A DNA stretch of 64,000 bases from Leucoraja erinacea (taxonomy: Eukaryota): positions 5,828,001 to 5,892,000 of the forward strand of contig NC_073414.1 of assembly GCF_028641065.1 (NCBI RefSeq). Direction: 5' to 3'. A model generated the notes under the pieces. It made no database searches. It was not told the origin of the DNA and was given only the letters and a program-made list of their open reading frames with translations. The stretch's first letter is position 1. The number at the start of each line of letters is the position of its first letter. Shown one piece after another: positions 13,554-63,314 of the stretch. Both the position numbers and the translations under genes were made by a program.

Positions 13554-13586
<33 letters not shown>

Positions 13587-35149: not shown

Positions 35150-36420
35150 AATGCCACCGCGGTACCACGTGGCCGGCGGTGGGGGTTGGGGGGGACAGGG
35201 GGGGGAGAGTCACGTGGTGCGGGCGGGAGGGCGCGGGCGGTGCGTGTTGTTTAGAGGCCTGGCAGCGGGCTCGAGCGCATCGCCTCGCCTCACCTCACCG
35301 CCGGCGGGCGAACGGACACCCGCGGGGTGGTGGTGGGAGAGGGAAGGGCAGTGGGACCGCACGGCCAACGCCATCCCGCTCACGGCTGCGAGGTAATAAA
35401 GCGCCTGGGGGGTGGGGGAGAGTGACCGGCGGAGAGAAGCAGGCGGACAGGCCCGCTGGTGGCACTCGAGGCCCAGGCGCCTTTTGTTCGGACTGTGAGT
35501 GCGTGTGTGTGTGTGGGGCGTGGGCCTTTGGCAGCGCTCACTCTCACCACCCCCACCCTCGCCACCTCCACCCACCTCCCCCCCCCCCCCCCCTCCTCCT
35601 CCTCCTGCTCCTGCCGCGGTGAGAGGAGCAGAGACGGCGAGGTGAGCGGTGAGCCCACCCTCTTACTTCCCACCCTCCCCCCCCCTCTTGCTTCCCTCCC
35701 ACCCTCTCTCTCTCCCCCCGAGAGCGGGCTGTGCTTGGCCCGCACCCAGTCCACTCCAGACCCAGACCCAGACCGCCAGACACGGAGCACGGCCCTGTAC
35801 AGCAGGGCCCCGGCCCGACCGCCTCCCACAATGGAGAAATGGAGAGCAATCACATGTCCGGCTACTCCCAGCGGTTCGCTCCCCATTGTCTCCCCGTCTC
35901 CCTCGGGGGAGGGTTTTCTTTGAACGATCTACCTCCCAGCTCTTCTATTTTAACTGGCCAAAAAATCACAGTCAAAGCCCGCTGCAGAACCGGTCCATGT
36001 GAAGTTGGCTGCCGCGAATCCAGCGCGTAAATTGCACCATTTATTTTCCCCTCCCCCTCCTCCCTCCTCGCTGCCCGCTTTATTAATCGGAGTTCTCGCC
36101 GCTTTCACTTCTAGGATGCCTTTGCCGAGTCGAGTGTGGAGCAGCCGCCTGACCCTCGGCGATGGCTGACGGCGGCCAGGAGCTGCCGGCCTTCTCCCGC
36201 CCCCCTTCCTGCTCCATGGCCGTGCATTGATTGAGGCGTCGCTGCGAACTGCAGGCTGCCTGCCCAACGGATTGCAAGCGCATACCTCTTGTCGTGTATC
36301 CACACACGTACACACACACACACACTTCGCCATGGACGGGAAAAAAATTGATGACATCGCTCCCGGCCGTCTTCGCCGCCTTGAAGACAACAATGGCGTG
36401 ATGAAGTCTCCTCCATCCTG
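35150..36420 (+). promoter_or_regulatory. CpG island, promoter and 5' UTR of MGA-like gene
   Basis: High GC and CpG density. CACGTG at 35166 and 35211, GGCGGGA at 35222. Candidate non-coding exon donor GAG|GTGAGC at 35641/35642 and acceptor ttcacttctAG at 36114. Confidence 0.7.
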
Positions 36421-37012
36421 CCTCAAGTCCGGGAACGTCAAGGTCTATCTGAAAAAGTGGAGCATCTGGGACAAATTTTACAATTTGGGTACCGAGATGA
36501 GAATGTCCAAACGGGGAAGGTTTATGTTTCCATACTGTGAATATTCAGTCTCCGGGCTGGATCCCGAGAAAAAGTACATCATGGCAATGGATATCTCTCC
36601 AGTGGACAGTTACCGCTACAGATACAATGGATGCAAATGGCAGATAAATGGGAAAGCAACCCCACATGTAATGGGGAGGCTTTATTTCCATCCAAATGGG
36701 AGTGTTTCTGGAAAAGAATGGATGCTTAAGACATTGTCTTTTGCCAAACTCAGATTGACCAATTGCCCTACAGCAGAAGAAGGCAATGCAATCCTTCATT
36801 CAATGCATCGATACATCCCCCAATTCCACATTATTGTAACTGATGGAATCATTGAGAAGCTAAACCTGAATGATCCCCGTGTCTACACATTTGTCTTTCA
36901 ACAAACTGAGTTCTTTGCTGTGACAAAGTATGAAAATAAATTTATCAGGCAGCTAAAACATTTCTATAATCCCTATGGCACTGCACTACGTGACCTAAAG
37001 ACCTCCAAACAG
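36332..37012 (+). CDS. MGA-like exon: complete T-box domain
   Basis: gccATGG Kozak context. Encodes W.KF...GTEM....GR.MFP, GLDP..KY, YFHP, W....LSF.KL.LTN, ILHSMHRYIP and F.F.QTEFFAVT.Y.N. Donor CAG|GTAAAT. Confidence 0.95.
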
Positions 37013-40000
37013 GTAAATAATCAGCTATAGATTTTTGGTGGAAAATTGTTATTGCATATAAGAGTCGGGTGTCATGATGCAGCTCTGTAAGATTTTGGTT
37101 AGGCTGCATTTGGAATATTGCCTGCTGTTCTGGGTACCCCATTACAGGAAGGATGTGGAGGCTTGTAGATGGAAGGCGCAGATACAATAATTGAGTTTGA
37201 GGCTTTTAGATAGGCACATGGATATGGATCACGTGCAGGCCGATGAGATTAGTTTATCTTGACATCAACTTCAGCACAGATCTTGAGGACCTTACGGCCT
37301 GTTTCTGTGCTGTACTGTTCAATGTTCCAAATGTGACCAATGGCCTTGCCCAATGAACTTGGTCACAATTGTATTCATCAAAGAGCAGTTAACTTTTAAT
37401 AATAATGTAAATCTTGGTGCTTGCTCTTGATTTTTTTCCCCACAAGCAGTAGCTCTACTCTACAACCAAAAGTCTAACCTCCTTTTGCTCTGGTTTTTTA
37501 TTTCATTCTTCACATGTGTAAATTATTAAGTTTTATTTGTAATTGTCTACTGTATATTGTGTTGTTACTTGCGAGCAAAGCACCAAGGCAAACTCCTTGT
37601 ATGAAAACATACTTGGCTAATAACATTTATTCAATTCAATGATTTAAACCATCTCCGTTGGCACATTCTTGTAGAATTTTATTCTGCTGAGACAATACAA
37701 ATTAAAGAATGCAGACTCCACTAGAGTCCCTTAAGGGCCTATCCCACTTGTACGACCTAATTGCCGACCTCTGCCGAGTTTGCCCTTGACTCGTACTCGC
37801 AGCATGGTCGCCATGAGGTCATGGGAGGTCTTCGTAACTCTTCATTATGCTCGTGAGTGGTCTCCGCGTACTCGTGTCCTCAAGTAGGTCAGTGTGATAT
37901 GTCTTGCTGCCGATGCAGTAATATCCGATGTGATTAAAGCATAAGCATCTTATAGTTCTGATTGCAGTTGTGTCAGTGCATCCACTGGATCTACACATCC
38001 AGTTGTTGATAAAATTATACTATTTGCCAAGCTAGTTTTGTAACTAGCATTCAGTGTAATAACAAATGCCTCCCTGGTATGACCACCAATTTTGCTAAAT
38101 TGTGTCCAACTCGTGCAACTTGAAAGTAGTTTTGCCATTGATTGTCCTATCAAGCTACACTACAACAAGTCAATGAGGCATCTTGCCAAAGCGTTTCAAT
38201 ATTTCAGGGCTATGCCCTGTTCTCTTATCTCCTGAAACCTCCCCACTTGCCCTTCCATTTGACATGCCTCAAATGTAAGTAGCTTGTGCTTAGCTTATGA
38301 AGATAAGTCAACCAGGGAAAGCATTTGCTGAGAGGCAACCACTTTCGTCACTTGCAGGTTTTTTTCACAAGTTCACAAAGTATGGTAGAATTAGGCCATT
38401 CGGCCCATCGAGTCTACTCTGCCATTCAATCCGAGCTCTGTCCAATTTTCCGGCCTTCTCCCCATAACCCTCGACACCTGTTCTAATCAAGAATTTGTCT
38501 ATCTCTGCCTTAAAAATATCCATTGACGTCCCCCACAGCCCTCTGTAGCAATGTGTTCCACAGATTAACTCCCCTCTGACTAAAGAAGGTCCTCCTCGCT
38601 TCCTTTCTGAAAGAGCGCCCTTTAATTCTGAGTGCCCTTTAATGACCCCTAGACTCTCCCACCAGTGGAAACATTAGATGTTCTTGGGTTTGTCAAAAGT
38701 TCTTTGTGTTTGTCCTTTGGGAATTTTTTGAGAATGGTCCTCGTGTATTGATTTTACTTGTTTTATTATGGAAACTACCTAATTGTATCAGAAATGGGGA
38801 AATTCCTGTCTGGAAAGTTGACTGGAATCCCAAGTGCATGAACGGTCCAGAGCAGTTTGTGATTCTTTCCAGCTTCTCCCTATGAAGCACTGAATGATTG
38901 TTCATTTTTTGCTCACAGGATGGTGTGAATAGCCGAAAGGCTAGGAAGCGATGTGAAAAGAAGTCTTTCCTCAATGTAGTAAAAATACACGATACCACAA
39001 ATAATAATGAGGAGTCTGAGCAGAAACTGAAGGCAATTATTCCCCTAAAGGATGGTGCAGGAAAAACCCAAGAATGTACAAATAACCAAGGACTTATGAA
39101 ACAAATGAGAAAAATTCCACCTGTAGAAAATGTACAAATAAAACAGTCATTCAGTTTTGAAGGTCAGTAATAGGAAGTCAATTACTTCACAGAATATTCT
39201 CCTATTGTGGTCCTAAATGCATTTATTTAAATTCCCAATCTGGTTATTGCAACTTATTTTCATACCGTGCAGGTTTCTCCACTCAAAGATTCTTCCTTGT
39301 TAGATCAACGTTTCATTCTTACTTGGCACCATGCTGTACCTTGCTTGAGCTATTATTTTTTCAAATGTTTTCTAATTTGTTGGCCACTGAGATTAATTAT
39401 TTCAACAGTGTATACCACCACCATCGTCCAAACCACCCAATCTAGTTTGTGTCCCCACTAGATTATTCTATTATTTCATCCTTGTCATATTTGACACTGT
39501 CTTACAAAACAACACCCTTTAAAAGATTAAATCAATTAAAGGCCGTATTCAAGCAGCATTAGCACGGAAATTTCTTGCCTGATTCTGCTCTTATGATCGT
39601 ATCCATTACAACCCAAAGGTTTCAGAAATGTTTCAGTATGTGAATCTATTACAGTTCGCTGGTTCATTACACAGAACAGCAGAGAGGCATGTAGATTGAA
39701 CTAGAACAGAATAATAGGACAAAACTTGGGGGGAAGAATAAATGTCCAGCATTCCAATGTGCAAATTGAGGAATGTTTTCTTGAATTTCCTGAGACACAG
39801 TGGTGACACAGTGGTGCTGCGGTAGAATTGCTGCCTAAAGGAGCTGTCCCACTTAAGCGATTTTTACTTGCCGGCACCCGTCACAGTCGCAGCAGGTCGC
39901 CGAAAATTTTCAAAATGTTGAAAATCCAGCAGCGACCAGAAAAAGGTACGACTCTTTGGGCGACTACTCACCACCAAACAGGCATCACCCCACAACATGT

Positions 40001-43000
40001 CTTCTTATAAAATCAAGCAATCTTTTAAATAAAAAACAAAGCTTCTACTTACCTCCAACAGATTCTCAGGACAGGATAGCGGAGATTGAAAATCTTGAAC
40101 AGAAACTACGGGATGAGCTGATATGGAATGGATCACATGAAATACTGCATCCAGTTCTACAAAAATGTTTGTACACTTTTTTGCTGTTTCCTACTTATGC
40201 ATGTTCCTTTTGTTAAATTTACATTTTAATCCTTTTAAGTTCAGCATTTGAGCAGGGGTTGACTTTAATTTCCTTAGTATTCAACTTAAACATTATATGA
40301 ACTGGTTTCTGCCTTTGGTATTTTACACTTCCAAATGTGGTTAGGTCAGTAATTGCCATTTAAACTTGCAGAGAAGATTAAAGGGAGACACGGTGGCACA
40401 GCTGTAGAGTCACTGCCTTGCACCGTCAGAGACCCGGGTTCCATCCTGAGTAGGGGGGGCTGTCTGCACAGAGTTTATATGTCTCCTGTGACCGCATAGG
40501 TTTTCTCCAAGTGCCCCGGTTTTCAAAAACGTACAGGTTTGTATGTTAATTGGCTTCGGTAAAAGTTGTAAATTGTCCCTGGCGTGTAGGATAGCGCTAG
40601 TGTCCGGGGATTGTTGGTCTGCGACAACTCGTGGACCGAAGGGCCTATTTCCGCGCTGTATCTCTGAACTAAACTAAACTAATTTTGTGCTGGTGAATTG
40701 GGGAGTCTTTTTTCTGAAGTTGGAGCTGAGTGGAAAGAACTTCACTTGGAGTGTGTCTGCGCTACAGCTGAAATGGTAATGCTTGTGTGGACACCAGATG
40801 CTAGAAACTGAAAATCAGGAAAAGAGTACAGATGCTGGAAATCTGGAATAAAACTCAGTAAATGTTGGAAACATCAATGGAAAGAGAAACAGTTAACTTT
40901 TCAGGTCCAAAATCCTTTATCAGAAATATATGAAGAATAACAGTGATCCCAATATCAACCCCTGGGGAACTTGATGATTCATTTCTTTCCAGTCCATAAA
41001 AAGCATTTCATTCTGTTTCCTTTTACTGAGCTGCTGCAAACCTTTTTATACCATGGTGTAAAATCTTGATGAAATGCCAAATATGTGCAATTAGCAATCG
41101 TTGACAATTGCATGTCATTAAAAGATTGATATACGCTTAAAAAAATCTGTGTTTAAAGGCCACATACTGTAAGGTAACAGAAAATAGGAGACTTGGAGAA
41201 TTCTGCTGTTCTTATAACACTGGCACAGCATCTTTCTTTGCCTGGCCTGACTTCCATGTTTCCTGAGACTATTTATACCCTCCGCCAAAAAGCCCAGGGT
41301 TAGCCCTCAAAAATGTGCAGATATTTACATCCTTGTGCCTCTCTGAGTGGCATGACTATAGTCAGGAGGTCAAAGTATATTGCTTGCTGGTGAGAACTGC
41401 TGTTGTACCATACTATAATACCTTCCATTGATGCTTGAGTTACTAGGCCTAATCCATGGTCTTTTAAAATAAGTGAACTGATCCTAATTACTTAATTGAT
41501 CTCGCTTATTGTGCTTATGCTCGCGCTCTCATTTTCTCTAGCTGGCATAAAACTAAGTGGCCTTCAGATCACCGAATGGCTAAACTTGAAACATTTAGGA
41601 CATGCTTTGTATCATGGACACTCTGTTCCCAGTTCTGAGCAGAATGCTGAATTGAATTATTCCTCCTTTTCTGGAGCCGAGTCACATGGAATGCGAGGTA
41701 AGTAAAGCATTCAGTCTAAGTTTTAATACAAAGTGTTCTCTTGGATAATGTGGTTTGTGCAGCCAAGATTTTGGTGCCGTTAAAGGAAGGATTACAGATG
41801 GATAATGATCTCATTCTTGCATTGCCCATCTGAATTGAGCAGATTGGCTGCATTAATAATACTTCAGGCAATATCTGTGGAGTGAATAATCTGACCATGT
41901 AGGGTTCTAGACATGAAACATTAACCTCAGGAGCGACTTTCACCCAGAGAGTTGTGAGTCTGTAGAATTCTCTGCCACAGAAGATAGTGGAGGACAATTC
42001 ACTGGATGTTTTCAAGAGAGAGTTAGATTTAGCTCTTGGGGCTAACGGAATCAAGAGATATGATTTTGGATGATCAGCCATGATCATTTTGAATGGCGGT
42101 GCTGGCTCGAAAGGCTGAATAGCCTACTCCTACACCTATTTTCTATGTTTTTATCAGAGAGCTGAGACATCTGTGGAAGATTAGACTGTTAAATGATTAG
42201 TTTAGACTGTTATGTTTAAGAGGGAACTGCAGATGCTGGAAAATCAAAGGTAGACAAAAATACTGGAGAAACTCAGCGGGTGAAGCAGCATCTATGAAGC
42301 GAAGGAAATGGCAAAGTTTTGGGTCAAGACCCTTCTTCAGATTAGACTGTTAAATGATTAGAGTCCGTTGGAGTAGCACATGGGAAGTGGCAGGATGGCT
42401 GATATAGACTTCCAGCATTGCACGCCAGTACTTCTGCAGGGATGCATTGGTTCAGCCTGACCCCAGGGTGAATAACAGAGATACCAGGAACTGCTGATGA
42501 TGGTCTGCTCTCAAGTAAAAATAAAATAAAATACCAGAAAAGCTCAGCAGAATCGGCAGCAACTGTGGAAGGAGAAACATAAGTAATGTGTTAGTTTAAA
42601 TACCCTTTGCCTGAATAAACCCAATATTCTCCATTCAGCTGAATCCATTGGCACTGGTTTGGATGCATCTGCTGTAGATATTTTGAGGATAGGGGATCAA
42701 AAGAGGAAAATCAACTTTGAATATAAAGTTCTTTATGCCACTTGTGACTGGGCCTCAATTTAAATTGTGTTTCTCTTGACTCAGTCTTCCTTAAACTTTA
42801 ATCCTTTGAGGATTTCTGCAAACAAATGGTCCACAAATATACCTGCAAATCTTTTGTGTATTGGTCCTCAAAATCACAAACATCTAATCACTTGAAAACT
42901 TGTGAAGGAAAGAACTGCCGATGCAGTTTAAATCGAAGGTAGATGCAAAATGCTGGAGCAACTCAGCATCTCTGGAGAGGAATCGGTGACGTTTCGAGTC

Positions 43001-46000
43001 GAGACCCTTCTTCAGTCATAAGACATGTCTCGACTTGAAAACTTGTGCTAATTTTAACAACAGCTCATGGTCAGTCCTGCTTTGGTAAATGATATTGATA
43101 TTGGGAGGTATGTTAAAATATCAATACATAATGACATCAGAAAAGAGCATACATGCTGGGTTTGTGAGTTTCCGTTATATTTACATATCTTGTGAATTTA
43201 CTACTTGCAGAAACCGGAATTCCATTTATCTCCCGGACAGGAAAAACCAATGATCTCACCAAGATTAAGGGTTGGAAGAACAAATTTAATCTGCAGCCAG
43301 GGTCACCTGATGACAAACCAAACCCATTACCTTCAAGTAAGCAAGATTTAAAAAAAATATTTTGTGATTATTTTGTAAAAAGTCTGACAAGGCAAGTCGA
43401 TTGTCATGGATTGGTGTAAAAATAGAATATTTGGAATTTATGTGCTTTTGTAGTGGAATAGACAAATCAAATCTGTTCTGCCTTGATTTGAATTCAGATT
43501 GGTGAGCACAGAAGCAAAGAATGAATGAAAGCTGGCTTTAGTTGCGATTTGAACATTTTTTTTTGTTGACCTGGTTTAAAGTTAAAAGAATGAGAGAGCC
43601 GCCAGGAATTAATTGTCAAAGCAACAGGTGTGGTTGACACTTTCAACAAAAAATCTATTGAGACGGGGAAAGAGTCAAGCCAAATGTTATTTTGTAGAAC
43701 AAAGAGCATAGAACAGTGCAGCACCAGAACAGGCCCTCGAGCCAAAAATATATGTGCCAAGCATGATGCCTAGACCAACTCTTATCTGCCTGCTCATAAT
43801 CCATTCTGCTCTGGAAGATTAGATCGCATGGGATCCAAGGAGAGATAGCCGACTGGATAAAAAAAATTGTATCATGGCAGGAAGCCGAGGGTAATGGTGG
43901 AGGGTTACTTTTCGGACTGGAGGCCTGTGCCTAGTGGAGTGCCTTAGGGTTTAGTGCTAGACTCATTGTCACCTGTATCAATGATTTGGATGAGAACGTT
44001 CAAGGCATGATTAGTAAGTTTACAGATGACACTAAAGTGAAGGCCGAAGGACGTGTTTCCATGCTGTATGAATCCGAATCTATCCCTACATCCCTCCATT
44101 CCCTGCATATCCATATGCCTCTCAAATGTTTCTTAAGTGCCGCTGTCATATTTGTCTTAATTGCCATCCTGGCAAGGTCTGTGCTCCAAAGCTAATTTTC
44201 ATGATGATACCAACCTTGTGGACAGTCTAGATCTGTTGCGGACTGTTGGCTGGGAGGAGATTGTAGTTAGTAGTCATGCAGCAGAACTTGTGGAGCCCAA
44301 AGGCAGTGGTCCAGCATTCCCCAATGGATTATTCCTGCTTGTCGGGCTGTCTATGGTTGGTTAAATAGAGCCACAGAAGTATAGTTGACCTCACCCCAGC
44401 TTGATGACTGTGAAATATATAGAGGAGGATGTTTTTTTTCTTCTTTAAATCATATAAAAGACGAGGGTCATGAAGGTTCAGAGGGACAGTCCCTATTGTG
44501 GAGATAACTTGTACAGAAACTTAGAGCATGAATCTACTCATTCCTTTCCTTAAACTAAGCTTGAATAGATTTTGTATTGGTCTATTTCAATTTTGAATTG
44601 TGGAAATTGTATTTAATTCAATATTTAAAAAAATTGTCTTGTCTCTCAAATCGATACCTTCAGTTTCAGTTCAGTTTATTGTCACGTGTAAAGTTTATTG
44701 TCACATGTACCGTGAAAAGCTTTTGTTATTCATGCTTCTTTTTATACGGTTATTTATGATTCCTTTATGCTTGCTTTTAATAGGTGCCACCACTACAGTT
44801 ATTAAAAATAGATCAGCATTTGTTAGTGATCTGCTGGATGAATACCTGGAAAAAGAAGGGAAGATTATTGAACAGCAATCTCTGCTGTATGACTATGAGA
44901 TGCCTGAGATTGGTTGTCGTACTCCGAACCTCTTTGATTCACCATGTAGTATTCAACAAAACCCTACTACCCATTCACCTGACTTGGCTCTGCCACCAAA
45001 AAACAAATCTGCACATTTGGAAATGCCACCTGTGCTGGAGAAACACTTCAGCGTTACAAACAAAGGGATATTCATCAGAGATGTACAAAGCAACAGCGTG
45101 CGTGGGAAAAAAAGGCGTAAAAAGCATAACAGCAGTTCTGTGGGTAAAAGGTCAAAAATACCCAATCAAAATAAAAATGCGTCAAAACTATCGATTAAAG
45201 ATGACCCGACTCAATTTCATGTCACACCCTCACAAAAGGTGAGCAATTTAGTATCAACCTTTTTTCTGTTTTTTTATTAATTTTATACATTTTCTAGTGA
45301 TTTTATTTCCTTCCTTGCTCTGTATTTTCACCCTTGATGTGACATGAGCCAGGAGCGGGATGAAATGCTGCTCGCTTGCCTATGTGGAGGCTACTTTGAC
45401 AACACCCAAGCTCAGTAGCTTCCATGACAAAGCAGCCACCTGACTGGTAACCCACACAACATTAAACATACATTTGCTTCGCTGCTCATTGTGGCTACTG
45501 TCTTTATGGTCTAGAAAATGTTCTAAAGCAATTTGCCAGGGAGTCTTTCCAGAACTACGATTCTTGGAACTTTTCTTACTGTTTTTTCTTCTTTTTTTTA
45601 AAGAAACAAATGAAACCAAATCCAGCAAACCTTAACGTCGTGCATGTGTCATCAAGAACCAAAGGTGGAAAGAAATCTAGTATTTCAGAAAGTCAAAATG
45701 AAGCCACATACGTTCCAGGTGAGGATATTGAAAGAAATATCTTTGAGATGTGAGGAATCATGGAGACAATGTCTTAAATTAGAAATATTTTTTAATGCAT
45801 TTTTAAGTGAAAATCTTACATAATCATAAAATATGCAAAATAATTCTTGTTTATAGAATTCTCATCTTCTAAAACCCGGGCTACCAATTTTTTCAAGAAA
45901 AATATTGCATATACCCGAGTTGGAACTTAGCCTGAATTTTACTAATAAAGGGTGTAAAAATCCCACCTTTGGGTCCTGTCAGCATTTTACATGAACCATT

Positions 46001-49000
46001 GTTTAAATGCAAGTTTTGTCTGAGCAGTGTTCTGCAATTGATATTGAATGTTAATTTGTGTTTACATTGGAGTCAATCAGTTGAGAAACAGGCCCTTCAA
46101 CCTGTTCAGGCATGTTAAAGTTCTGCTTTAACATGCCTGAACTGACCAGCAAGTCTCTGCTATGTTTGACGATTCAACATACTTAAACATTACTCCACCA
46201 TCGTCTGGGCAGTGTTTTGCAGATTTCATCCACCTGGGTGAAAATAATCTTTCACAAAGGCCCTCTAAACTCGAACCCCTAACCTTAAACCTATACATTC
46301 TGCCATAGGACTATCTGCATTAAGGCACAACAAGCTCTCCTGGGTGTACGGAAAAAAATAAACTCCTAAGCTTTTCATACTGGTGATGCTTTCCATGACT
46401 GGGGAACAATATTTTTTAAATTAAAGTCCCCTTCCACTGTAACCCTTCCATCTCTGTGATTTACGCACATATCTGCCCCTCTTATCTCCTGCTGACATTT
46501 CTGAAGCATGCCATATACCACCGGTAAATTATCACTCAAGGTTTGTTGCTAAGTTATACCCCTTATGGGCTAATTTGTGGAGTCTTCGAAGATATCTTCC
46601 CCCAATACTTAATTTACTGACTCCTAAATAAGTTGTAATACCAACTCTTTTTACATTCTTCCCCCATTCATGCACAAAGATTTATACCCTGGAATGTTGA
46701 ATTACTAGTCCTGCCCTTCCTTCAACCATGACTCTCTAATAGAAACAATAAGCAGAAATGTTACCTTAATATTTCTGGTCCATAAAACTTTATATTGGTA
46801 GGCACATAAACTATAAGCTGAGAGCTGATTTAAAAAAAAAAAAGGCCCTTTTAAAAATAAACGAAGTTGTGAAATCTAACTCTTATGTCAATTTGCTTCT
46901 CGAATTTTGTGCATTTTCTGCTTCCATTCTGTCTCCTTTTCAGTTATAACCTTTTTAACATGTTTCATTGCTAATTTTGCTAAATAAATCTTTGCACTTG
47001 GTTAAATTTTGTATATATCTATAAATATATATGTGAATTATTCCCTTCTCAAGTTTAAATGTAACCCTGACACAATCACAAATGTTTAGCCAAAGGGGAC
47101 TGAAGCTGGTAAAACTCTGCTCTGGTTGCTGCTTTGCGATAAATGCTCTTTTATTTTTGACAGGGGGCAGTTATATCTTATTCTGTTTAATTCTTCATTC
47201 AATGTCCTTGATCTCTATGCTGGCTTCCTAACCCCTTGTATACTATTTTCATCAATTCTGGAAACAAATGATCTCAATAATCGTTGCTTCCGTCTATATT
47301 AAGGCATCAATTAGTTTTTGCTTGCGGATCAGGAGTCAGTAGCGCTATTCCATACCTTAAGACTACTGCATGAAGGCCCCAGTCCATGCAGATAGTTACC
47401 AAGTTTGTATCATTTGTTTTTGCATTGTGTATGAAATATTTTGTAATAGATAGGGCTAAGATAACATGTTAATTAATTTAATATTTTTATTGCTCTAATA
47501 CCGTTTCTTCTCCATTATCTGCTCACAAAAAACACTTTTGCATTGTTATTAACAATTTTCTTCCTCTTGCAGATGCTAAAAATGTAGAGCGAGAAGAAAG
47601 GTGTAAGCAGCTACCATTGACGCCAAACAAACCACCTGACTCTAAAACAGTTGAGATAATATCCTACTGTGCATGGAACGAAAGTCGTGTTAAGATAATT
47701 AAGCTGATCGCAGAATGTGCAATGGCTAAAAAGCTTCCCTGTACACAGCGGTTAGAGACAAATATGAAATTCACGTGGAAAAAAGGGAAGGGACTTTGTC
47801 GTTTTCCCCTAAGAAGCAGGTTGATTTGAGAGCATCCATCCAGAATTTCTCTGACTTGGAATGTGTATATGACAAGCCAATGGTGCAAACTATGGTGATT
47901 GAAGCTGTGGTTGGCAAATCTGCTTTTAAAACAAAACTGAATAATTTAATATCCAAGGTGAGAGCTTCACTTTTTATATATTCCTTCCTGCAGCAATCAG
48001 TGGGATCTCTGATTACCATGCCACCTAACAATGTGCAATGTTCAATTCAGTGACCTGGGTCAAAATTTGTTAAGACTATCCTAACTATAGGCCTTTTGAG
48101 CAAGGACTTTCTTGAGCGTTAGTGTTCTCTGGGGCTCATCATACATTTGATTAACAAGTTTTCAATTACTATATCTTCTGGCTAGCAAGCTGTGTGTCTT
48201 TCTTCAATGGATTTAGTTTAGTTTCTAGATACAGTGTGGAAACAGGCCCTTCGGCCCACTGAGTCCATGCCGACCAATGACCAACACTATCCTACGCACT
48301 CTAGGGGCAATTTACATTTATACCAAGCCAATTAACCTACAAACCTGTACGGCTTTGGAGTGTGGGAGGAAACCGAAGATCCGGGAGAAAACCCATGCGT
48401 TCACGGGCAGAACGTACAAACTCAGTACAGACAGCACCCGTAGTCAGGATCGAACTGGGTCCCTGACGCTGCAACTCTACCGCTGCACCCTGTGACACTG
48501 GTTCAATTTAGTTTGTGTAAATTACAAACTATAGCATTTTGTTCCGATGTCCCTTCATTAATAGGCTTCTGAACAGTCCTTTCATAAGCTACAGCTAGAT
48601 TCACCTCTACCCCATTGCAGAACATTGGACTTTGTCCATGGAACTGATGCGCGACAATGCTGAGAACTATATTCGGCACTCTGTATCCTCTCCTTTGTTC
48701 CATCTATTGTACTTGAGTTTGAATTGACTGTATCTATGTTTGGTATATCTAATCTGGATTACGTGCAAAACAAACCTTTTCACTTTACCTTGGTACATGT
48801 GACAATAACAAGTTTCAACCTCATTGGAGATTCAAATATATTCCAATACCACAGTAGAGCAGCGAGGTGTTCCTTCATTTAGTGAATGTGATAAGGTTCT
48901 GATTAGTTGCAAAATAATGCAATACAGATTTTGGAGAGGAAATTTGACAACAGCTAGTAGTATTGTGTTTAATTACGGAGATCCTGACTTGAGCATTGAA

Positions 49001-52000: not shown

Positions 52001-55000
52001 GTCATCCATTTTACCAGCTTTTGGCCACACTGACCCATTTGAACACGATGTACTAATTTCCCAAAGCAAAATAGTGCAGTGTGGGAACTTAAATAAAAAC
52101 ACATACTATGGATTAGGGAACATCTGGGGCAAAATAAATAATTGACATTTCAGATTGATGATTGTTAATCCCAAACACACTGTGTGCATCTTTCACTATT
52201 GTATTGATTTTGAATGATATACGACTTTCCTGAGTCTTGAATTAAAAGGAACTAAAATGCTCTGACATTTATTTCACTATCATAACCTTGAAAATGCATT
52301 GGCGTGAGTAGGAAAAAGAATGTTTTTTCCTCAGAAGATGTCTACCGTGGAAAAATTACGTGAATTGTTGGCTTCTCCTGTAGTTTTTTTTTAATGGTTC
52401 ATCTTTCTGTTAGGACCAACTGACTCTCTTGATCAAGATGGCCGACAGTGCTCCGTCGCCCTCCCAAGCACCTTGAAGCTACAGCCAGGAGAAAATCTAA
52501 TGCTTCGGCCTGTTAAGTCTGCAGATGGCCGACAGTTATATAAACACTCCAGTGGGAAAGTATTCCAACTAGTTTACACCAAGCCTCCAGGACGAGTCCC
52601 AGTTCAACAGTCTGACAACCCTCAATCATCCATTCTAGGTATGTAATGTAGATATGCGCAGAGTATTCAGTACTAGAGTTACTGTGTGGTCAGGCAGCAG
52701 CCCTGAAGAACATGGATAGGTGGTATTTTGGGTTGGGACCTTTCTTGAGTCTGAAGAAGTGCCCCGACCCGAAATGTCACTTATCTGTGTTCTCCAGAGA
52801 AGCTGTCTGATCTATTGAGTTACTCCAGCAATTTGTGTCTCTTTTTGTATAAAATAGCATCTGCAGTTCCTTGTATCTCCAGAATATTTAGTACTGCTGA
52901 GTTGTATTTGCTGCTCAAAGTCTATCTAGGCTTGCTTTTGGTAACCCCCTTACTATAATAATTAGGGAAAAGCTATGATTGTCCAAAGTGTGATATCAGA
53001 ATAGTACACCTTGATATTTTTAACCACCAAACTAACATAGTGGGAAATTATAGCCATAGAATATTATGCAAGGAATAATATAGGGAAGGTTCTTAATGTC
53101 TCAATGTGTAAATGCATTATAGGTATGGAATACCTGATAAGTCTAGATGCAGTGAAGTCGGCAAAAAAGGTACTACTCGTGATTAATTATAAGATCCCTT
53201 GAGGGAAAAATGTGATAGACACAAGGAACTGCAGGTGCTGGTTTACAACAAACAACAAAAAAGACACGAAGTGCTGGAGTAAGTCAGCAGGCCAGACAGC
53301 AGCTCTGAATGACACCTCCCCCCCCCCCCCCAGTAGTAATTTTTTTTAAATGCCTGGCACCTTCATGCTTGTGAACATTTCATAGTTGCTGGGGAATCTT
53401 AGACCTTTACCTGATTGTTCTTTTTAACTGCTGATTTAATTGTAATTTGATAATATGTTTGCGATTTTACAACGTGGTTCACAATGCATTGCCTCACAAA
53501 TCAAAGATCCAACGATTGGTCTAACTTCCAGCGGCGGGGTGAATTACGAATTATTACTTTGAATGAAAGTTTTGTTAGAGCACATCAGTTGCCAAACAGA
53601 ATGGTCTTTCATCTTTTTTGAGGATTTCACATGCAGTGTGTCCTTTTGTATGATGGTTGCAGGTTAATTGTTTATTTAAATAATACTTTGACCATTGCCA
53701 TACAGTCTAGACAGAATTGTTGAAGATTAGTATTGTTTTAATTCCAGGAAGCTCTCCACCGGTCGATGTGCTTGCACCTTCTACTGCTGCTGTCAAAGGT
53801 GATGGTAACACTCCTCGTTGCAAAACGGCTGCTACAAGTTCCGAATCGTACACTAAAAACAGTGTGGAAAGCAGTGCTGGGACAGGTTTATCCACCTCTT
53901 TATCTTCGTGTGACGTTGTCACCCGTGATGGAGCACCGCCACAAATTCAGAGTAGCTCTAAAGCTTGGAATATGGTGGATGAAGTTTCTTCACTCCAATC
54001 ACTACATCCCTTTCCAGAAGACACCACAACAGAGGTCAAACAACACAACAGACCACATACTATCATTCCAAGGGCTGATTGCCAGTCCAAACCAAATAGT
54101 GATGAATTAAACAATGATACACCTGACTTAAAAATGGAAATTGATCCATTGAAATTACCTGAGCCAGAAGAATACAATGAAAGCCCTGGTACTGTCGAAG
54201 GTTTTCCTATGAAAAATAGAGGCATTACTGTCACTGGAACTTACGAAACAAAATGGGCACCTGAGATTGAGGAGGATCACAAAACGACTGATCACGCATT
54301 ACAATTTAAATGTGACCTTGATGTCCACAACTCCAGAAAAACCCTCGTTAAGATGGAGAAGGAGGTGTCGGAAATAAATTCCTCTGAGCTGGTTGATCCT
54401 GACAGTTCTGAAATATGTGCCGTGACGGTTAAAGAGGAACCTTTGAATGAAGAGGAAGGCAATAGTTTTACCACGTTAAGAGAAGATACGTTTAGAAGCT
54501 CCAAGCTCTGGAACCGATCATTCAATTTAAATACAGAAGCTGTGACTGAGGCAGAATTGGGGGTAGAGGTATGTATAGATGAATAAATACTTCTGAAGAA
54601 ACAAATTATTTTTACCAGACATTGGCTTTACCATCATGGCAATGGAAATGAAAGCTGGAAAACTAAATGGATTAAGGATTATATTTCTGTGGCAATGCCT
54701 TTGACTTAAAAATTAAGTGCTTGTTGCACACAAAATAGTTGTGGATATTTAGGTGGTAAATATTTTCAGTTTAGTGGTGGTTAAACAAATGTTGTCAAGC
54801 ACACATCTACTCAATGGAGAGTTATTTCCCTCACCCATGGGGGATATGAGGAGGAGGGGGGTGGGGGGTTGGTTGCAGCTTATCAGAAGGTGATGTGGGT
54901 TTTTTAAACCCTCCTAGTCTGATTCCATTTTTGTTTGGTCCCCAGTCAAGTCAAGAGAGTTTATTGTCATGTGTCCCAGATAGGACAATGAGATTCTTGC

Positions 55001-58000
55001 TTGCTGCAGTACAACGGAATAGAGAAGGCATAAATACAGAACAGATCAGTGTGTCCATATACCATAAATACACACACACACACACACGCACACACACACA
55101 CACACACACTGATAAAGTGCAATAGGCTGTTATAGTTCGGAGTTTGTTTGAAGTTCTGTTTAATAGTCTGATGGCTGTGGGGAAGAAGCTGCTCCTGAAC
55201 CTGGATGTTGCAGATTTCAGGCTCCTGTACCTTCTACCTGATGGCAGCGGAGAGATGAGTGTGTGGCCAGGATGGTGTGGGTCCTTGATGATGTTGGCAG
55301 CCTTTTTGAGGCAGCGACTGCGATAGATCCCCTCGACGGTAGGGAGGTCAGAGCCGATGATGGACATGTAAAGTTTGGTCCCCACACCAATTCCTGTTCT
55401 CTTTTGAGCAATCATCCGAAACTTCTGTGACTGAGACACTTTCAAGCTCATTAAATAAGGAGACATGCCAGAGCAAGGATGTAGTCAGAGTTAGTCATGA
55501 GCTTCAGATAAATATACGATGCACTTCATTTACTGAGCAGAGTCAGTAACCTTTATGGATTTACCAGTATGCTGAAGCAATTGGATGGCTTTATTTAGGA
55601 TTTTAGATTGGTTTATCAGTTGTGGGGGGAGGGGGGGTAGCATGTTGTGATATAGCTATTAATGAAAATTACGAATTTTTTTTTTGTGGGGCATTTTGTA
55701 TTCAGTCAACCAAATTCATTCAGGTAGGAAGTGAAGTTGGTGAGAACGGGAGAGAATTATAAAATAATTGTATCTTGGAGGATGGATGTCCTCTCACAAA
55801 ATAAGAAGACATTTCAAGCAACTTAGATGGTGAAGCTGGCAGACACTTACCACCTAAATCAGTAGAACTGCCAGTTTTCTTTCCCCATAAATGCTTGAAT
55901 CTGTTTGTCATGTGGTAGATTAGCCAGGACATGATCACTGCAATGTCCCACTCCCAATTCCTTGGGCGGCAGCAACTCCTTCAGTGCAGATCCTGAGGAG
56001 ATCTATACATTTGTCTTACTCATTTCAAGAGATCTTCCACAATGCCACATCGCAGAAGATGCTGTTAAGCTTCATGAACTGTTAGCAGAATCGCTGGGGA
56101 AATATCAGTTTAAATGATGCTGCGACTAGTTTTAAGTTGCTGTACATGAGACTTCTTGCAAGCATTTGACATTTTGAAGAATATCTTCCATCTGGGTATT
56201 TGTTTTTTCTGCCACATCTATAACTACTGTGAGTTATTCTTTCCCTGGTAGACAAAAGTGCTGGAGAAACTCAGCGGGTGCAGCAGCATCTATGGAGCGA
56301 AGGAAATGGGCAACGTTTCGGCCCGAAACGTTGCCTATTTCCTTCGCTCCATAGATGCTGCTGTACCTGCTGAGTTTCTCCAGCACTTTTGTCTACCTTT
56401 GATTTTCCAGCACCTGCAGTTCCTTCTTAAACAGTTATTCTTTCCCTTGCAGACTCATTCCAATAGTAGAAGTAGAGTTGGATTTGGAAATCTGATGTCC
56501 AAATCAGCGATACCACGAAATTCATCAACTGACAGTAAACTGGATGTGCCACACAGGTCAGTAACAGTAAGGAGCAATGAAAGTTCCAACTTAAATCTCT
56601 ATTATACTAAAACTCTTCCCTTTGTGCTTAAGATTCTAAATGTCTGTGTGAGCCAGGGTTGTGTTGGCTTACTTTTAACTCCTTAATTTGTATCTTCTTC
56701 CAAACGCTTGGCCACAGCCTTCCCTTTTTCACACATGCTACTCACAATTTCTCTGCCGACAGGATACATATCTTCCCGTTGCATTTCAACCTATATTTAA
56801 CACATTTTACAAACAGCTTCAAATGATTAAAGTTTTCAACGTTCTCATTTAGAAGGAAAAAATTCCGACTGATGTCACAGTCGACTCCCAAGTCACGGCG
56901 GGACACTCCACGCGGGAGGGGCACTCAAGCGCTTCATACACAAAAAAATTCTGACTGCCGTCAGAACGGGACACTTCGCGCGGGAAGGTCACTCAAGCGC
57001 TTAAAACACACGAAAAAAATCAATCCACTCGCAAGTCGGGTCCTCGGGTCGACACCCGCTGCCTCGCTCGGGTCCACGCCCGCCCGCTGCCTGGTGGGGA
57101 GGCGGTTGCCGTGAGCCGAGCCTGGCGACTGGGCCTGGGCTGGAGCTGGAGTGAGGGCCGAGCTCGAGGCTTGGGATGGGGCCGTGACCGGCACCGAAAA
57201 AGAAGCCGCCGGTGCATCCAAGGACAAGCCGGGGTCAGGGACCAGCCCGGAGATAAGTTGGGGCCTGGACTGGAGACCATGTAGCGGCCGAGCTGACAGC
57301 TGAAGTCTACAGCCAGGGCCGGGCTGAGTACGAGAGCCAGGCCGAGTTCCAGGCCCTGGCGCTGCTCTACGACCTTCATAGGTGCTGCGGCAGGGAATGG
57401 GAGTGAGGAGAAGAGGATGAGGGAAATGAGGAGGAGGGAGATAGGCTGGGGCTCTGCCCCCCTCCCTCTCTGCCCCCCTCCCTCTCTGCCCCCCCCCCTG
57501 CCCCCCTCCCTCTGCCCCTCCCTCTGCCCCCTCCCCCCCCCCCCCTCTCCCTGCCCCTCACCCTCTCTCCCTCTCTGCTCCAATGGTTCCTGGTTCCTAT
57601 TTGGTCTAGTCTATTATAAAGAGCAGTCTAGCGAAAGTAAACCTGAAGTAGTGTTTCAGCCTAGGATAGGTATCAGGATTTGTAATGGGTATAGATGTAT
57701 TTACATGTGGCCTGATCAGTGGCTGGAAAGGATTTCCAGAATATTGAGCACATTGAAGAGGGAGCCAGATGTCATAATGATGTTGGTGGATTTGTATTCC
57801 ACAAAGATGCAACCAAATAGGATGGAAACTCTTTAAAATAATCTATAATGTGTAATCCCCCTATTTATTGTATGTACTGAGAGGGTGATATTGATCATAA
57901 ACCTCTTGTAAATAAGTTTCCATGTGAGTTTTAAAATTTTACCTTCAGTGGCACAGTTGAAAGGATGTTTGGTTGCAAGTAACATGATGGTTATCTCTGC

Positions 58001-61000: not shown

Positions 61001-63314
61001 GGTTTACTGTTGTTACATGTACCAAGCACAGTGAACAGTTTTGGTCATTGTCCCCATTTCGATAACCTGCTAAATTTACAGATAAAATCTGGTTTTGGAT
61101 AATCTAATTTGCAAGAATTTTAAGAAATGAAGTTTTGTAAACATGCAGTGTTTCCATTTATTTTTTTTAGCTGTTGCTAAAATTTGAGATCTGTTTAAGC
61201 TAATAAGTTGTTGCAATGGACTGCATAAGCCATAAACTTTTCCTATTCTTTAGGGGATATTTCCAGCCTTCACAGTCGTCCAGCCACTCCACTCAAAGAA
61301 AGGTGAGTCCAATCCAATGTTTGGTTATGTTGCATTATCATTACAATACGCTTCATTAAACCTCATTTATCATTACAATAGACAATAGGTGCAGGAGTAG
61401 GCCATTTGGCCCTTATAGCCAGCACCGCCATTCAATGTGATTAGTTAAGATACTCATTGTACCTCAAACACCAATACTGACCTTTATCCTATGGGCTCAA
61501 CTGGCTTCTTAATGGTTTTGTTATTCTTAGGCATTTGAGTCCTCTGTATTCTGTCAAGCTCGTAAGAAGGCAATATTACACAACATGAGAGAACGTGAGT
61601 CCCGTAGGATGATGGAAAATCGCTTTAAAATACTAAAGAACAAGCTTTTTGATGACCGGCAAATTGCATCAAAGGGTACAATCCTTGATGAGGTTTGTGA
61701 ATAATTTGATTAATGTTCACAGAGTAAGGAGTGGTGAGATTTTTTCCCCCCCATTTTTTAGCTGTTTTCACCGTACCTTTCTTGCATACATTGATCTTCT
61801 AAGGCAGTGATTCTTAACCTTGGGGTTGGGACACCCACGGGGGGTCATTTGGGGCTTTACCGAGGGACATGAAGGGGTTATAAATAACATATCCATTTGT
61901 TGAGCCCATTTTTAGGAACCTAACAAAGGTACATACCACATACAGTATTTTGTTTGTGTATGCGCGTACGTATGCCAAAATGGTTAAGAAACACTGTTCT
62001 AAGGGGTAGAAACATAGAAATTAGGTGCAGGAGTAGGCCATTCGGCCCTTCGAGCCTGCACCGCCATTCAATATGATCATGACTGATCATCCAACTCGGT
62101 ATCCCGTACCTGCCATGTCTCCATACCCTCTGATCCCCTTGGCCACAAGGGCCACATCTAACTCCCTCTTAAATATAGCCAATGAACTGGCCTCAACTAC
62201 CCTCTGTGGCAGAGAGTTCCAGAGATTCACCACTCTCTGTGTGAAAAAAAGTTCTTCTCATCTTGGTTTTAAAGGATTTCCCCCTTATCCTTAAGCTGTG
62301 ATCCCTTGTCAGATATCTTTGACAATTAAGAGATCTTTCTGGTGTCATTTAGTGCAGTCATAAGATTATTTATTAAATTAAACAGATCCCATTTCTGGCT
62401 GCAAATCATTTATTTGACTTGCCTGCTGGCATTTTAATCGCAGAGCAAGTAAGTCACACCACAAATACAACTCCTGTTAATACAAAATGATGTTTATTCA
62501 AAAATAACTCGTATTATAAAGATATTTATGCAATACAGTTTTGGTCGACCTTAGATTTAGAATAAATGTTTAAGAATGAACTGCAGATGCTGGAAAATCA
62601 AAGGTAGACGAAAATGCTGGAGAAACTCAGCGGGTGAGGCTGCATCTCTGGAGCGAAGGAAATAGGCAACGTTTTGGATTGAGACCCTTCTTCAGACTGA
62701 TGTGGGGGGGGTGGGGCGGGAAGAAGAAAGGAAGAGGCGGAGACAGTGGGCTGATGTATGGAGCGAAGGTATGCCTACTTTGAAGAAGTTCTCCTACTGT
62801 CAGCCCACTGTCTCTGCCTCTTCCTTCCTTCTTCCCTCCCCCCACCCTCACTTCAGTCTGAAGAAGGGTCTCGACCCAAAACGTTGCCTATTTCCTTCGC
62901 TCCATAGATGCTGCCTCACCCGCTGAGTTTCTCCAGCATTTTTGTCTACCTTTGATTTAGAATAGATAGCAATGGGATTGAGAAGAATAGCAAGTGGTCA
63001 GGCATTGGAATGGTTTGGCAACCACTGGACTGGAGAGAAAATCCAAATGTATCCTGTGCCACATCCAGCATCTAAGTCTGCACAAACCTTTTTGAAGTTA
63101 ATGTTGTGGATAAAAAAATGTATGAAGTCATTTGCAAAATTCTCCCAAATGTTAAATTGGACATTATTTTTGGTATTTCATGTTTTTGCTTGTGGTCTAC
63201 AGGCTGTTGATGTAATCACTAACTTGGATAGACAGTCTACAAATCTAACAATGGAGAAGCAACTACTTCTGGGGAAACAAAAGATCTTGTTGGAAAAGAT
63301 TTCCCTTTTATCTG
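36332..63314 (+). CDS. MGA-like (MAX gene-associated) T-box plus bHLH-Zip transcription factor, divergent paralog, 3'-incomplete; exons 36332-37012, 38919-39162, 40062-40166, 41542-41697, 43211-43336, 44784-45238, 45604-45718, 47573-47957 (frameshift), 49331-49478, 50532-50828, 52414-52638, 53748-54568, 56453-56556, 61254-61302, 61531-61692, 63203-63314
   Basis: The T-box is in a single exon, an MGA trait. MGA-type motifs occur in the expected order: LHPVLQKSGIKL..LNLKHLG, PFISRTGKTNDLTKIKGW, SAFVSDLLDEYLEKEGKI, VEIISYCAWNESRVKII, LMLRPVKSADGRQLYKHSSGKVFQL, then bHLH HNMRERESRRMM..F..LK..SKGTILDEA and zipper ..EKISLLSG. Every junction is GT-AG and phase-matched except for a 1-nt discrepancy inside 47573-47957. 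Confidence 0.88.
38919..39162 (+). CDS. MGA-like exon
   Basis: Acceptor tttttgctcacAG, open frame DGVNSRKARKR..SFE, donor G|GTCAGT. Phases 0 and 1. Confidence 0.75.
40062..40166 (+). CDS. MGA-like exon
   Basis: Encodes DSQDRIAEIENLEQKLRDELIWNGSHEILHPVLQK (MGA IHPGLQE-like). Phases 1 and 1. Confidence 0.8.
40383..40682 (+). mobile_element. tRNA-derived HE1-like SINE, near full length
   Basis: A box ggtggcacagctgtag, B box gggttccatcc, 3' tail (aacta)n. Confidence 0.8.
41542..41697 (+). CDS. MGA-like exon
   Basis: Encodes GIKLSGLQITEWLNLKHLGHAL (MGA GLKL..IDLKYLG-like). Donor G|GTAAGT. Confidence 0.8.
43211..43336 (+). CDS. MGA-like exon
   Basis: Encodes IPFISRTGKTNDLTKIKGWKNKF, a highly conserved MGA motif. 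Donor A|GTAAGC. Confidence 0.9.
44784..45238 (+). CDS. MGA-like exon
   Basis: Encodes RSAFVSDLLDEYLEKEGKII and a basic GKKRRKK NLS-like segment. Donor AAG|GTGAGC. Confidence 0.9.
45604..45718 (+). CDS. MGA-like exon
   Basis: Long polypyrimidine tract plus AAG. Encodes KQMKPNPANLNVVHVSSRTKGGKKSSISESQNEATYVP. Donor G|GTGAGG. Bridges phase 0 to phase 1. Confidence 0.75.
47573..47957 (+). CDS. MGA-like exon containing an apparent 1-nt frameshift
   Basis: The 5' half (VEIISYCAWNESRVKII) is in the frame of ORF 47617, and the 3' half up to donor AAG|GTGAGA is in the frame of ORF 47775. Confidence 0.75.
48211..48493 (-). mobile_element. HE1-like SINE, partial
   Basis: Reverse-complement similarity to 40383-40682, with a (tttag)n tail at the left end. 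Confidence 0.75.
49331..49478 (+). CDS. MGA-like exon
   Basis: Acceptor ttttAG, ASKNNSNQPPVEQISSP..NSVT, donor A|GTAAGT. Confidence 0.75.
50532..50828 (+). CDS. MGA-like exon (S/T-rich)
   Basis: Acceptor cttttctgcAG(cag)(aag), in frame with ORF 50558. Donor G|GTAGGC. Confidence 0.75.
51454..51588 (-). mobile_element. Short retroposon 3' end with (AAG)n tail and 12-bp target-site duplication
   Basis: Flanked by CAGCCCTGCTAT (51442-51453) and CAGCCCTTCTAT (51589-51600). Confidence 0.65.
52414..52638 (+). CDS. MGA-like exon
   Basis: Encodes LMLRPVKSADGRQLYKHSSGKVFQLV (MGA LQPVRS..G..LFRHPNGQIVQL-like). Donor G|GTATGT. Not in the ORF track. Confidence 0.85.
53748..54568 (+). CDS. MGA-like large acidic exon
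   Basis: ORF 53717-54586, acceptor attccAG, donor GAG|GTATGT. Contains LKME and VKEE SUMO-type motifs. Confidence 0.85.
54944..55366 (-). mobile_element. Rex1/Babar LINE 3' fragment with internal (CA)n
   Basis: Peptide IIGSDLPTVEGIYRSRCLKKAANIIKDPHHPGH..LPSGRRYRSL..RFRSSFFPTAIRLLN. Tail (cttga)n. Confidence 0.85.
56247..56432. mobile_element. Penelope-derived fold-back (inverted pLTR-like) insertion with 15-bp TSD
   Basis: Arms of ~75 bp are reverse-complementary around tttcgg-c-ccgaaa. Flanked by AGTTATTCTTTCCCT at 56232-56246 and 56433-56447. Confidence 0.8.
56453..56556 (+). CDS. MGA-like exon
   Basis: Acceptor tctttcccttgcAG, THSNSRSRVGFGNLMSK..VPH(R), donor AG|GTCAGT. Phases 0 and 2. 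Confidence 0.7.
58600..58795 (+). mobile_element. Penelope-like GIY-YIG remnant (target of pogo insertion)
   Basis: ttccaggtgagacaaaga..tgcacctcatctaacctc (FQVRQR.TCTSSNL) and agacttggtgaccgtttcgttaaacacttgcgctcggtc (RLGDRF..HLRSV). Confidence 0.7.
59082..60365 (+). pseudogene. pogo transposase (Brinker-type DBD, CENP-B HTH, DDE_1) with single in-frame TAG at 59439-59441
   Basis: Motifs KRLSYTIGYKLKVI..GNRAAERRFG, KWPELEEE..W, SSWC*RFMKRNGLSMR, GNMDE, VWDQFRAH and QLQPLDVSINKPFK. There are 35 residues between the second and third D, and an acidic tail. ORFs 59067 and 59448 are in the same frame. Confidence 0.9.
60487..60609 (+). repeat. ~25-bp tandem repeat (~4.5 copies) in transposon 3' region
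   Basis: Unit approximately gaatggaaatggccgccaccatggt. Confidence 0.9.
61254..61302 (+). CDS. MGA-like small exon
   Basis: Acceptor ttcctattctttAG, GYFQPSQSSSHSTQRK, donor AAG|GTGAGT. Phases 2 and 0. Confidence 0.7.
61531..61692 (+). CDS. MGA-like exon: basic region, helix 1, loop and start of helix 2
   Basis: Encodes AFESSVFCQARKKAILHNMRERESRRMMENRFKILKNKLFDDRQIASKGTILDE. Not in the ORF track. Confidence 0.88.
61805..61996. mobile_element. hAT (Charlie-like) MITE
   Basis: TIRs CAGTGATTCTTAACC and GGTTAAGAAACACTG, with 8-bp TSD TTCTAAGG at 61797-61804 and 61997-62004. Confidence 0.85.
62008..62310 (-). mobile_element. CR1-type LINE 3' end
   Basis: Near-identical to 3055-3357. Confidence 0.9.
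62565..62953. mobile_element. Penelope-derived inverted-repeat insertion with 11-bp TSD
   Basis: The left arm ~62600-62752 is reverse-complementary to the right arm ~62800-62953. GATTTAGAATA occurs at 62554-62564 and 62954-62964. Confidence 0.8.
63203..63314 (+). CDS. MGA-like exon: helix 2 and leucine zipper
   Basis: Encodes AVDVITNLDRQSTNLTMEKQLLLGKQKILLEKISLLSG, with heptad leucines. Donor G|GTAAGA, so the gene continues past the window. Confidence 0.88.

Follow-up and report, generated by a model that had tools for sequence, protein, structure and literature searches.

An uncharacterised, conserved MGA copy with three bHLH-Zip units in cartilaginous fishes

MGA is a tumour suppressor that scaffolds PRC1.6, and its gene adjoins MAPKBP1, a paralogue of WDR62. 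Recruitment of PRC1.6 by MGA is attributed to both DNA binding and scaffolding in part of PMC5806899, and binding of L3MBTL2 is assigned to the DUF4801 region of human MGA in a passage of PMC8266391. An intronless T-box is noted as a hallmark of MGA in sections of PMC3177325, which also list MGA as single-copy in human and mouse and give the amphioxus Mga-like gene two bHLH-Zip and no T-box. In an excerpt of PMC9916924, mgaa and mgab are listed for zebrafish. Canonical MGA, including the shark form named 'MGA a', shares with the gene reported here the intronless N-terminal T-box, the block order, a MYC-family bHLH-Zip and exon borders. Whereas canonical MGA has ~3100 aa, one bHLH-Zip, the PF16059/DUF4801 region and Arg12, the paralogue has ~2200-2300 aa, three units and no DUF4801; it lies on another chromosome, and its T-box, in which the recognition helix is changed, is only about 50% identical to that of canonical MGA. 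SREBP, as an analogy only, likewise combines a class B basic region (His5, Glu9, Arg13) with a substitution of the conserved Arg12, but has Tyr12 and a membrane anchor, whereas the paralogue has Ser or Trp at position 12, an MYC/MGA-type zipper and a T-box, with no membrane anchor seen. Our main reading, to which we give a probability of about 0.5, is that this gene is an ancient duplicate of MGA, most likely from the 2R genome duplication, which would encode a MAX-partnered, re-specified regulator acting without L3MBTL2/PRC1.6 and would have been lost in bony vertebrates.

The window, i.e., the whole 64,000-nt stretch of Leucoraja erinacea DNA that was analysed, carries the gene on the + strand at 36332-63314, where 16 coding exons with canonical AG/GT borders run from an ATG at 36332 to a phase-1 donor at 63314. 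A first-pass annotation had described 16 exons encoding a T-box, MGA motifs in order and a bHLH-Zip, and this description is upheld by the borders and by a match of the exons to Amblyraja radiata protein P0051, in which 1356 of 1384 residues are identical (87-100% per exon). In this exon-wise match, no stop codon was found inside any of the 16 individual exons. The skate gene is a real MGA-family gene, and the match is far beyond chance. The features of the window, one per line, are as follows.

2576..2741, + strand: galectin carbohydrate-recognition-domain exon (Pfam Gal-bind_lectin E 2.8e-14; best solved relative galectin-9)
10661..28699, + strand: upstream THAP5/THAP8-type gene with exons 10661-10743, 17382-17574, ~21746-22856 and ~28571-28699 (Pfam THAP E 9e-14; EHSY motif, coiled coil)
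34800..36400, no strand: CpG-rich stretch leading up to and covering the start codon, likely promoter or 5' UTR (GC 0.62 and CpG o/e 0.74 vs 0.42 and 0.44 for the window)
36332..37012, + strand: exon 1, ATG and whole intronless T-box, helix NPYGTAL instead of NPFAKGF (Pfam PF00907 E 1.7e-58; 227/227 residues identical to P0051)
38919..39162, + strand: exon 2 (borders and P0051 match)
40062..40166, + strand: exon 3, start of MGA block 2, ILHP motif (borders and P0051 match)
41542..41697, + strand: exon 4, block 2, borders in common with a canonical shark MGA exon (borders and P0051 match)
43211..43336, + strand: exon 5, SRTGKTND motif (borders and motif)
44784..45238, + strand: exon 6, NRSAF / DEYLE motif (borders and motif)
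45604..45718, + strand: exon 7; the canonical DUF4801/PF16059 region, expected between exons 6 and 8, is absent
47573..47957, + strand: exon 8, block 3 with the EIIS-x-C-x-W motif; the frame changes near 47755-47759 (borders and P0051 match)
49331..49478, + strand: exon 9 (borders and P0051 match)
50532..50828, + strand: exon 10 (borders and P0051 match)
52414..52638, + strand: exon 11, MGA block 4 (borders and motif)
53748..54568, + strand: exon 12 (borders and P0051 match)
56453..56556, + strand: exon 13 (borders and P0051 match)
61254..61302, + strand: exon 14 (borders and P0051 match)
61531..61692, + strand: exon 15, bHLH-Zip unit 1 from the basic region through helix 1 and the loop, with His5, Glu9 and Arg13 kept and Ser12 (weak Pfam HLH match when the exon is taken alone, E 0.023)
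63203..63314, + strand: exon 16, second helix and zipper of unit 1, ending in a phase-1 donor; the window does not reach units 2 and 3

Intron 13 holds a Pogo/Tigger-like transposase on the + strand at 59058-60362 (BrkDBD, Tc5 HTH, DDE_1 E 7.5e-23) interrupted by one in-frame stop (59439-59441). A search for terminal inverted repeats of at least 14 bases at this transposon found none, and a 25-bp tandem array follows the transposase at 60499-60609.

Short MGA blocks are held by exons 3-6, 8 and 11, in the order of MGA. Across the orthologue models, blocks T, B2, B3, B4 and BZ were found in MGA order in the 8 models with a T-box and B2-B4 in the other 3, in line with the proposal of MGA-specific linear motifs in correct order. 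The first zipper of the skate gene ends near codon 1395, in agreement with the earlier estimate that the zipper is reached after ~1400 codons. The description of the gene as compact applies to its spacers, which are shorter than in canonical MGA (91 vs 505 aa from T-box to block 2, 173 vs 462 aa from block 2 to block 3), but not to the gene as a whole, which extends past the window end at 64000 and has orthologue proteins of ~2200-2300 aa. A profile of the DUF4801 region matched none of 14 paralogue rows and none of the six frames of the window, while 5 of 6 controls scored 85-272 bits; the same profile search of the six window frames found no remnant DUF4801 exon in the introns of the skate gene. 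The L3MBTL2-binding region around DUF4801, which is the PRC1.6 scaffold feature, is thus absent from the paralogue.

The Pfam T-box (residues 39-221) lies wholly inside exon 1, and a predicted model of the skate domain (pLDDT 78, TM 0.84 to TBX1) retains an intact T-box fold. In the last helix, 8 of 8 paralogues have NPYGTA[L/F]R and 21 of 21 MGA sequences NPFAKGFR, and the same position reads F-x-x-x-F in TBX1, TBX3 and TBX5. In this F-x-x-x-F form, the two Phe residues make minor-groove contact. Entry of the last helix into the minor groove is described in part of PMC4365367.

The other end of the protein is further altered, as Pfam finds three HLH stretches in P0051, and three bHLH-Zip units are present in the models of 9 of 11 species, the model of Pristis (sawfish) having two and that of the chimaera, which lies on an 88-kb contig, one. 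The protein is therefore a triple-bHLH-Zip factor in sharks and rays and not simply a shortened MGA. A tree of the units, in which the bootstrap had not fully settled, gathers all paralogue units into one clade (100/100), with units 1 and 2 as sisters (98/94) and the chimaera unit grouped with unit 1, suggesting that the first of the internal duplications happened before chimaeras and sharks diverged. The sequence preceding unit 3 can be aligned with that preceding the single canonical MGA unit, and unit 3 is therefore probably the original, with units 1 and 2 as upstream copies. The three units, separated by linkers of about 50-320 aa, show 25-29% identity to those of canonical MGA. The zipper can be aligned in register with that of c-MYC, which is among the best solved relatives, and Lys is kept at the second zipper a-position, as in canonical MGA.

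Every one of the 30 units, from 11 species, retains His5, Glu9 and Arg13 and has Glu at basic position 11, so that Arg11-Arg12 of MGA is replaced by Glu-Ser or Glu-Trp in 30/30 units. Position 12 is Ser in 11/11 copies of unit 1 and in 10/10 of unit 2, Trp in 9/9 of unit 3 and Arg in 23/23 canonical units. Passages of PMC8431614 and PMC6329520 give the roles of basic-region positions 5, 9, 12 and 13 and place the Tyr of SREBP at position 12, where it breaks a salt bridge to Glu9 and gives dual specificity.

Outside the window, an acidic EIDVE stretch before unit 3 (P0051 ~1690-1700) is conserved in 7 of 7 paralogues and presumably resembles the WDR5-binding box of MYC; the canonical MGA motif VDIETVEEL, which neighbours this stretch, is degenerate in the paralogues. 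Two more stretches of P0051 outside the window, the last 20 residues and ~2051-2100, are strongly conserved (88% and 70% invariant over 7 rows), and Pfam gave no match for either of these C-terminal stretches. More than one bHLH-Zip per chain is also found in the amphioxus Mga-like protein and in ray-finned-fish two-unit MGA-like proteins. Two bHLH-Zip were seen in 9 of 73 MGA-like unnamed representatives (P0118, P0136, P0139, P0143, P0146, P0151, P0167, P0169 and P0228), and the three of these that were placed in the tree show no relation to the shark triplet. The double units sampled from fishes fell outside the paralogue clade, and the triplication in the paralogue looks independent of them; MGA seems to duplicate its bHLH-Zip repeatedly.

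A search with the chimaera protein returned 64 matches, among them 14 orthologue rows from 11 chondrichthyan species (one chimaera and 10 elasmobranchs), each carrying the name 'uncharacterized' or 'hypothetical'. The remaining 50 rows align, like MGA, over no more than about one fifth of the query. In sharks and rays, a second search found canonical MGA, a protein of ~3100 aa with a T-box, PF16059 and one HLH. The first-pass annotation had asked for a separate canonical MGA, and in 8 of the 11 species both genes are present, canonical MGA being on a different, larger contig (96 vs 26 Mb in zebra shark, 150 vs 20 Mb in sawfish; lengths are per cluster, for the longest contig). No canonical MGA of the chimaera, the basking shark or Amblyraja was found by name among the 120 of 1554 matches listed. 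Together with a clade of its own (100/100), this second locus in relatives bears out the claim that the paralogue is distinct from canonical MGA and rejects the skate gene as the canonical MGA of its genome. A recent lineage-specific duplicate is excluded by the chimaera orthologue.

In a T-box scan of 1.84 billion representatives, only three matches exceeded 224 bits among the best 150 of 668 (E<=1e-30), namely those of zebra shark and chimaera, both named, and one unnamed fragment with 84% identity. None of 73 unnamed MGA-like rows joined the paralogue clade in the T-box tree as a bony-vertebrate orthologue. These were 73 of 144 new unnamed rows from the best 150 of 668, T-box-bearing matches only; the 71 rows left out comprised 2 near-identical to mammalian MGA and 69 with at most one MGA motif, block 2 being present in 4 of these 69. 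The gene is thus likely absent from bony vertebrates, judged by the sequences sampled. Loss in mammals had been proposed, but the apparent loss spans all bony vertebrates sampled.

Two sets of candidate orthologues from bony vertebrates were rejected. Lizard 'MGA-like' proteins (P0034, P0036, P0037, P0038, P0041, P0081 and P0082) nest in tetrapod MGA, among lizard MGA, pointing to a separate squamate MGA duplication. The sturgeon model P0083 (Acipenser sinensis) nests in ray-finned MGA; it is a fused gene model of phosducin-like, PAS and MGA parts, whose neighbours we take to be PDCL3/NPAS2-like, which suggests that sturgeon MGA lies beside PDCL3/NPAS2-like genes rather than MAPKBP1. Skates have a further, T-box-less MGA-like gene (P0246, P0247, P0248 and P0250), which in Leucoraja is on a contig equal in size to that of canonical MGA; its bHLH-Zip nests with skate MGA, suggesting a recent local duplicate.

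With regard to its origin, an exon skipped in an isoform of Mobula canonical MGA has the borders of window exon 4; these common borders indicate a copy made at the DNA level and rule out a retrocopy. The MGA tree comprised 26 rows and 564 columns (7 of 33 rows were dropped), with anchovy TBX6L, represented by its T-box only, as sole outgroup. The paralogue clade (100/100) attaches between shark MGA and bony-vertebrate MGA. Its stem measures ~2.0 substitutions per site vs 0.1-0.4 for the crown branches, lengths that indicate a burst of change followed by long, strong conservation. The best tree places the single distant outgroup on the shark-MGA branch; in AU tests with this outgroup, 'outside all MGA' and 'sister of shark MGA' each cost 1.37 log units (p-AU 0.19), values that leave a 2R and a chondrichthyan-stem origin equally acceptable.

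That the paralogue is a 2R ohnologue, i.e., the second copy from the gnathostome genome duplication, is plausible though unproven, and we consider it somewhat more probable than other origins. An alternative, possible but less probable, is a segmental duplication of MGA in the chondrichthyan stem lineage, later than the divergence from bony fishes but before chimaeras and sharks separated, with transfer of the copy to another chromosome and no loss in bony vertebrates. It accords with the finding of orthologues in chondrichthyans only among the rows sampled, with block 2 and block 3 states common to the paralogue and shark MGA, with a tree that the AU test allows at p 0.19, and with local duplication of MGA elsewhere (the T-box-less copy on the skate MGA chromosome and the lizard MGA-like genes). 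However, the constrained tree equals the 2R tree in likelihood, so that no supported branch joins the paralogue and shark MGA. Group-wide site patterns unite the paralogue with bony-fish MGA at 9 sites vs 6 with shark MGA, and at one of the two T-box sites common to the paralogue and shark MGA the letter also occurs in the outgroup, so that it is the ancestral state. A short stem would also have to accommodate about 2 substitutions per site and two internal duplications, and a THAP5/8-type gene adjoins the paralogue, as the WDR62 paralogon predicts. The points against 2R are the outgroup on the shark-MGA branch, the 6 sites common with shark MGA, a galectin-9 best match and a THAP motif foreign to human THAP8.

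The last two points concern the neighbouring genes, as the first-pass annotation had placed a THAP8-like gene and a galectin beside the MGA copy. A THAP-domain gene and a galectin exon are present, but their identities as THAP8 and as a 19q13 galectin were not confirmed. The THAP gene matches only generic THAP clusters in the protein atlas, its zinc finger presumably resembles that of THAP8, and it has an EHSY motif, the HCF-1-binding motif. In excerpts of PMC13631171 and PMC6402169, this motif is given as absent from human THAP8 and present in THAP5. THAP8 adjoins WDR62 in a sheep gene order reported in part of PMC6478285, and the synteny of the skate locus with the WDR62/THAP8 paralogon is only suggestive, WDR62 and CLIP3 falling beyond the window. 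By the figures in a portion of PMC10620051, the 26-Mb zebra shark contig of the paralogue would count as one of the small chromosomes of sharks. In the H-x-N-x-R sugar-binding motif, the galectin exon carries Asp at the place taken by Asn in the aligned galectin-9 domains, no terminal galectin exon was identified after 2576-2741, and an assembly gap of 630 N lies at ~146-775, near the window start.

With the T-box fold and short motifs kept, DUF4801 gone, the bHLH-Zip copied twice and DNA-reading residues changed, the paralogue would be a nuclear, sequence-specific transcription regulator. Each of its three bHLH-Zip units would pair with MAX, as suggested by the zipper register and general zipper rules, and may read E-box-like or non-palindromic half-sites, as His5, Glu9 and Arg13 are kept and Arg12 is replaced as in SREBP; the T-box would read a variant T-site. 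With the DUF4801 region lost, the protein may act largely without L3MBTL2/PRC1.6, occupying or competing for multi-site targets and MAX rather than serving as a Polycomb scaffold. MAX binding, changed specificity and loss of Polycomb recruitment are all predicted from sequence, and Glu11 together with the loss of Arg12 could equally weaken DNA binding instead. A bolder version, which we hold only tentatively and consider unlikely as a whole, is that ancestral jawed vertebrates had a genome-duplication copy of MGA with a four-site grammar (a variant T-site and three non-canonical E-box half-sites) and up to three MAX partners, that this copy dropped the Polycomb-recruiting region and tripled its units before the shark-chimaera split, and that bony vertebrates lost it.

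Slightly more doubtful still is a rival account of function, by which the units bind DNA poorly and the protein sequesters MAX as a multivalent sink or forms intrachain pairs, acting as a MAX-independent or dominant-negative factor tethered by its T-box. The change of Arg11-Arg12 to Glu-Ser or Glu-Trp, which removes two basic residues from every unit, fits this account, as do the low identity to canonical MGA units and the presence of three units per chain with linkers long enough to allow intramolecular pairs. However, a pure sink would not need the base-reading residues His5, Glu9 and Arg13, which are kept in every unit, and the polar or charged a-positions of each zipper would, by the rules known for MYC/MAX zippers, argue against stable self-pairs.

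The first-pass annotation had further described the exons as phase-compatible, which does not hold for exon 8 (47573-47957). This exon measures 385 nt and changes frame near 47755-47759, so that the joined exons meet a stop after 712 codons. It carries two extra bases, in a short dinucleotide run, relative to 7 compared elasmobranch orthologues, all of which are in frame there. All GT sites were listed and none was strong in the phase needed for an in-frame rescue by another donor. Identity to Amblyraja is 669/683 before the break and 687/701 after it, 98.0% on either side, which indicates that the gene has not decayed, and the break is probably an assembly slip or a very recent allele. A young pseudogene in the skate, truncated by a genuine frameshift after 712 residues, would agree with the assembly as given and with the missing alternative donor, but is improbable in view of the equal identity around the break, the position of the extra bases in an assembly with a 630-base gap, the intact frame of all 7 orthologues and the finding of no other stop or shift across the 16 exons.

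The earlier description of the gene as largely uncharacterised agrees with the literature searched, in which no description was found in titles or abstract openings; supplements or genome-paper tables may list it. RefSeq contains the orthologues LOC116967820 (Amblyraja radiata, 98% identity) and LOC103191498 (Callorhinchus milii) as 'uncharacterized protein', and the further models LOC144671331, LOC125447831, LOC109924273 and LOC127586408 are automatic, with neither name nor function; no mention of any of these six identifiers was found in the main text of the papers searched. The paralogue is therefore a real, uncharacterised copy of MGA, and a more unusual one than had been noticed before.

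As a conserved MGA copy without DUF4801, this gene represents a natural experiment that separates the DNA- and MAX-binding roles of MGA from its Polycomb role. It also tests whether substitution of Arg12 re-specifies MAX heterodimers as it does in SREBP. If the synteny holds, it would be another case of a regulator that cartilaginous fishes kept and bony vertebrates lost.
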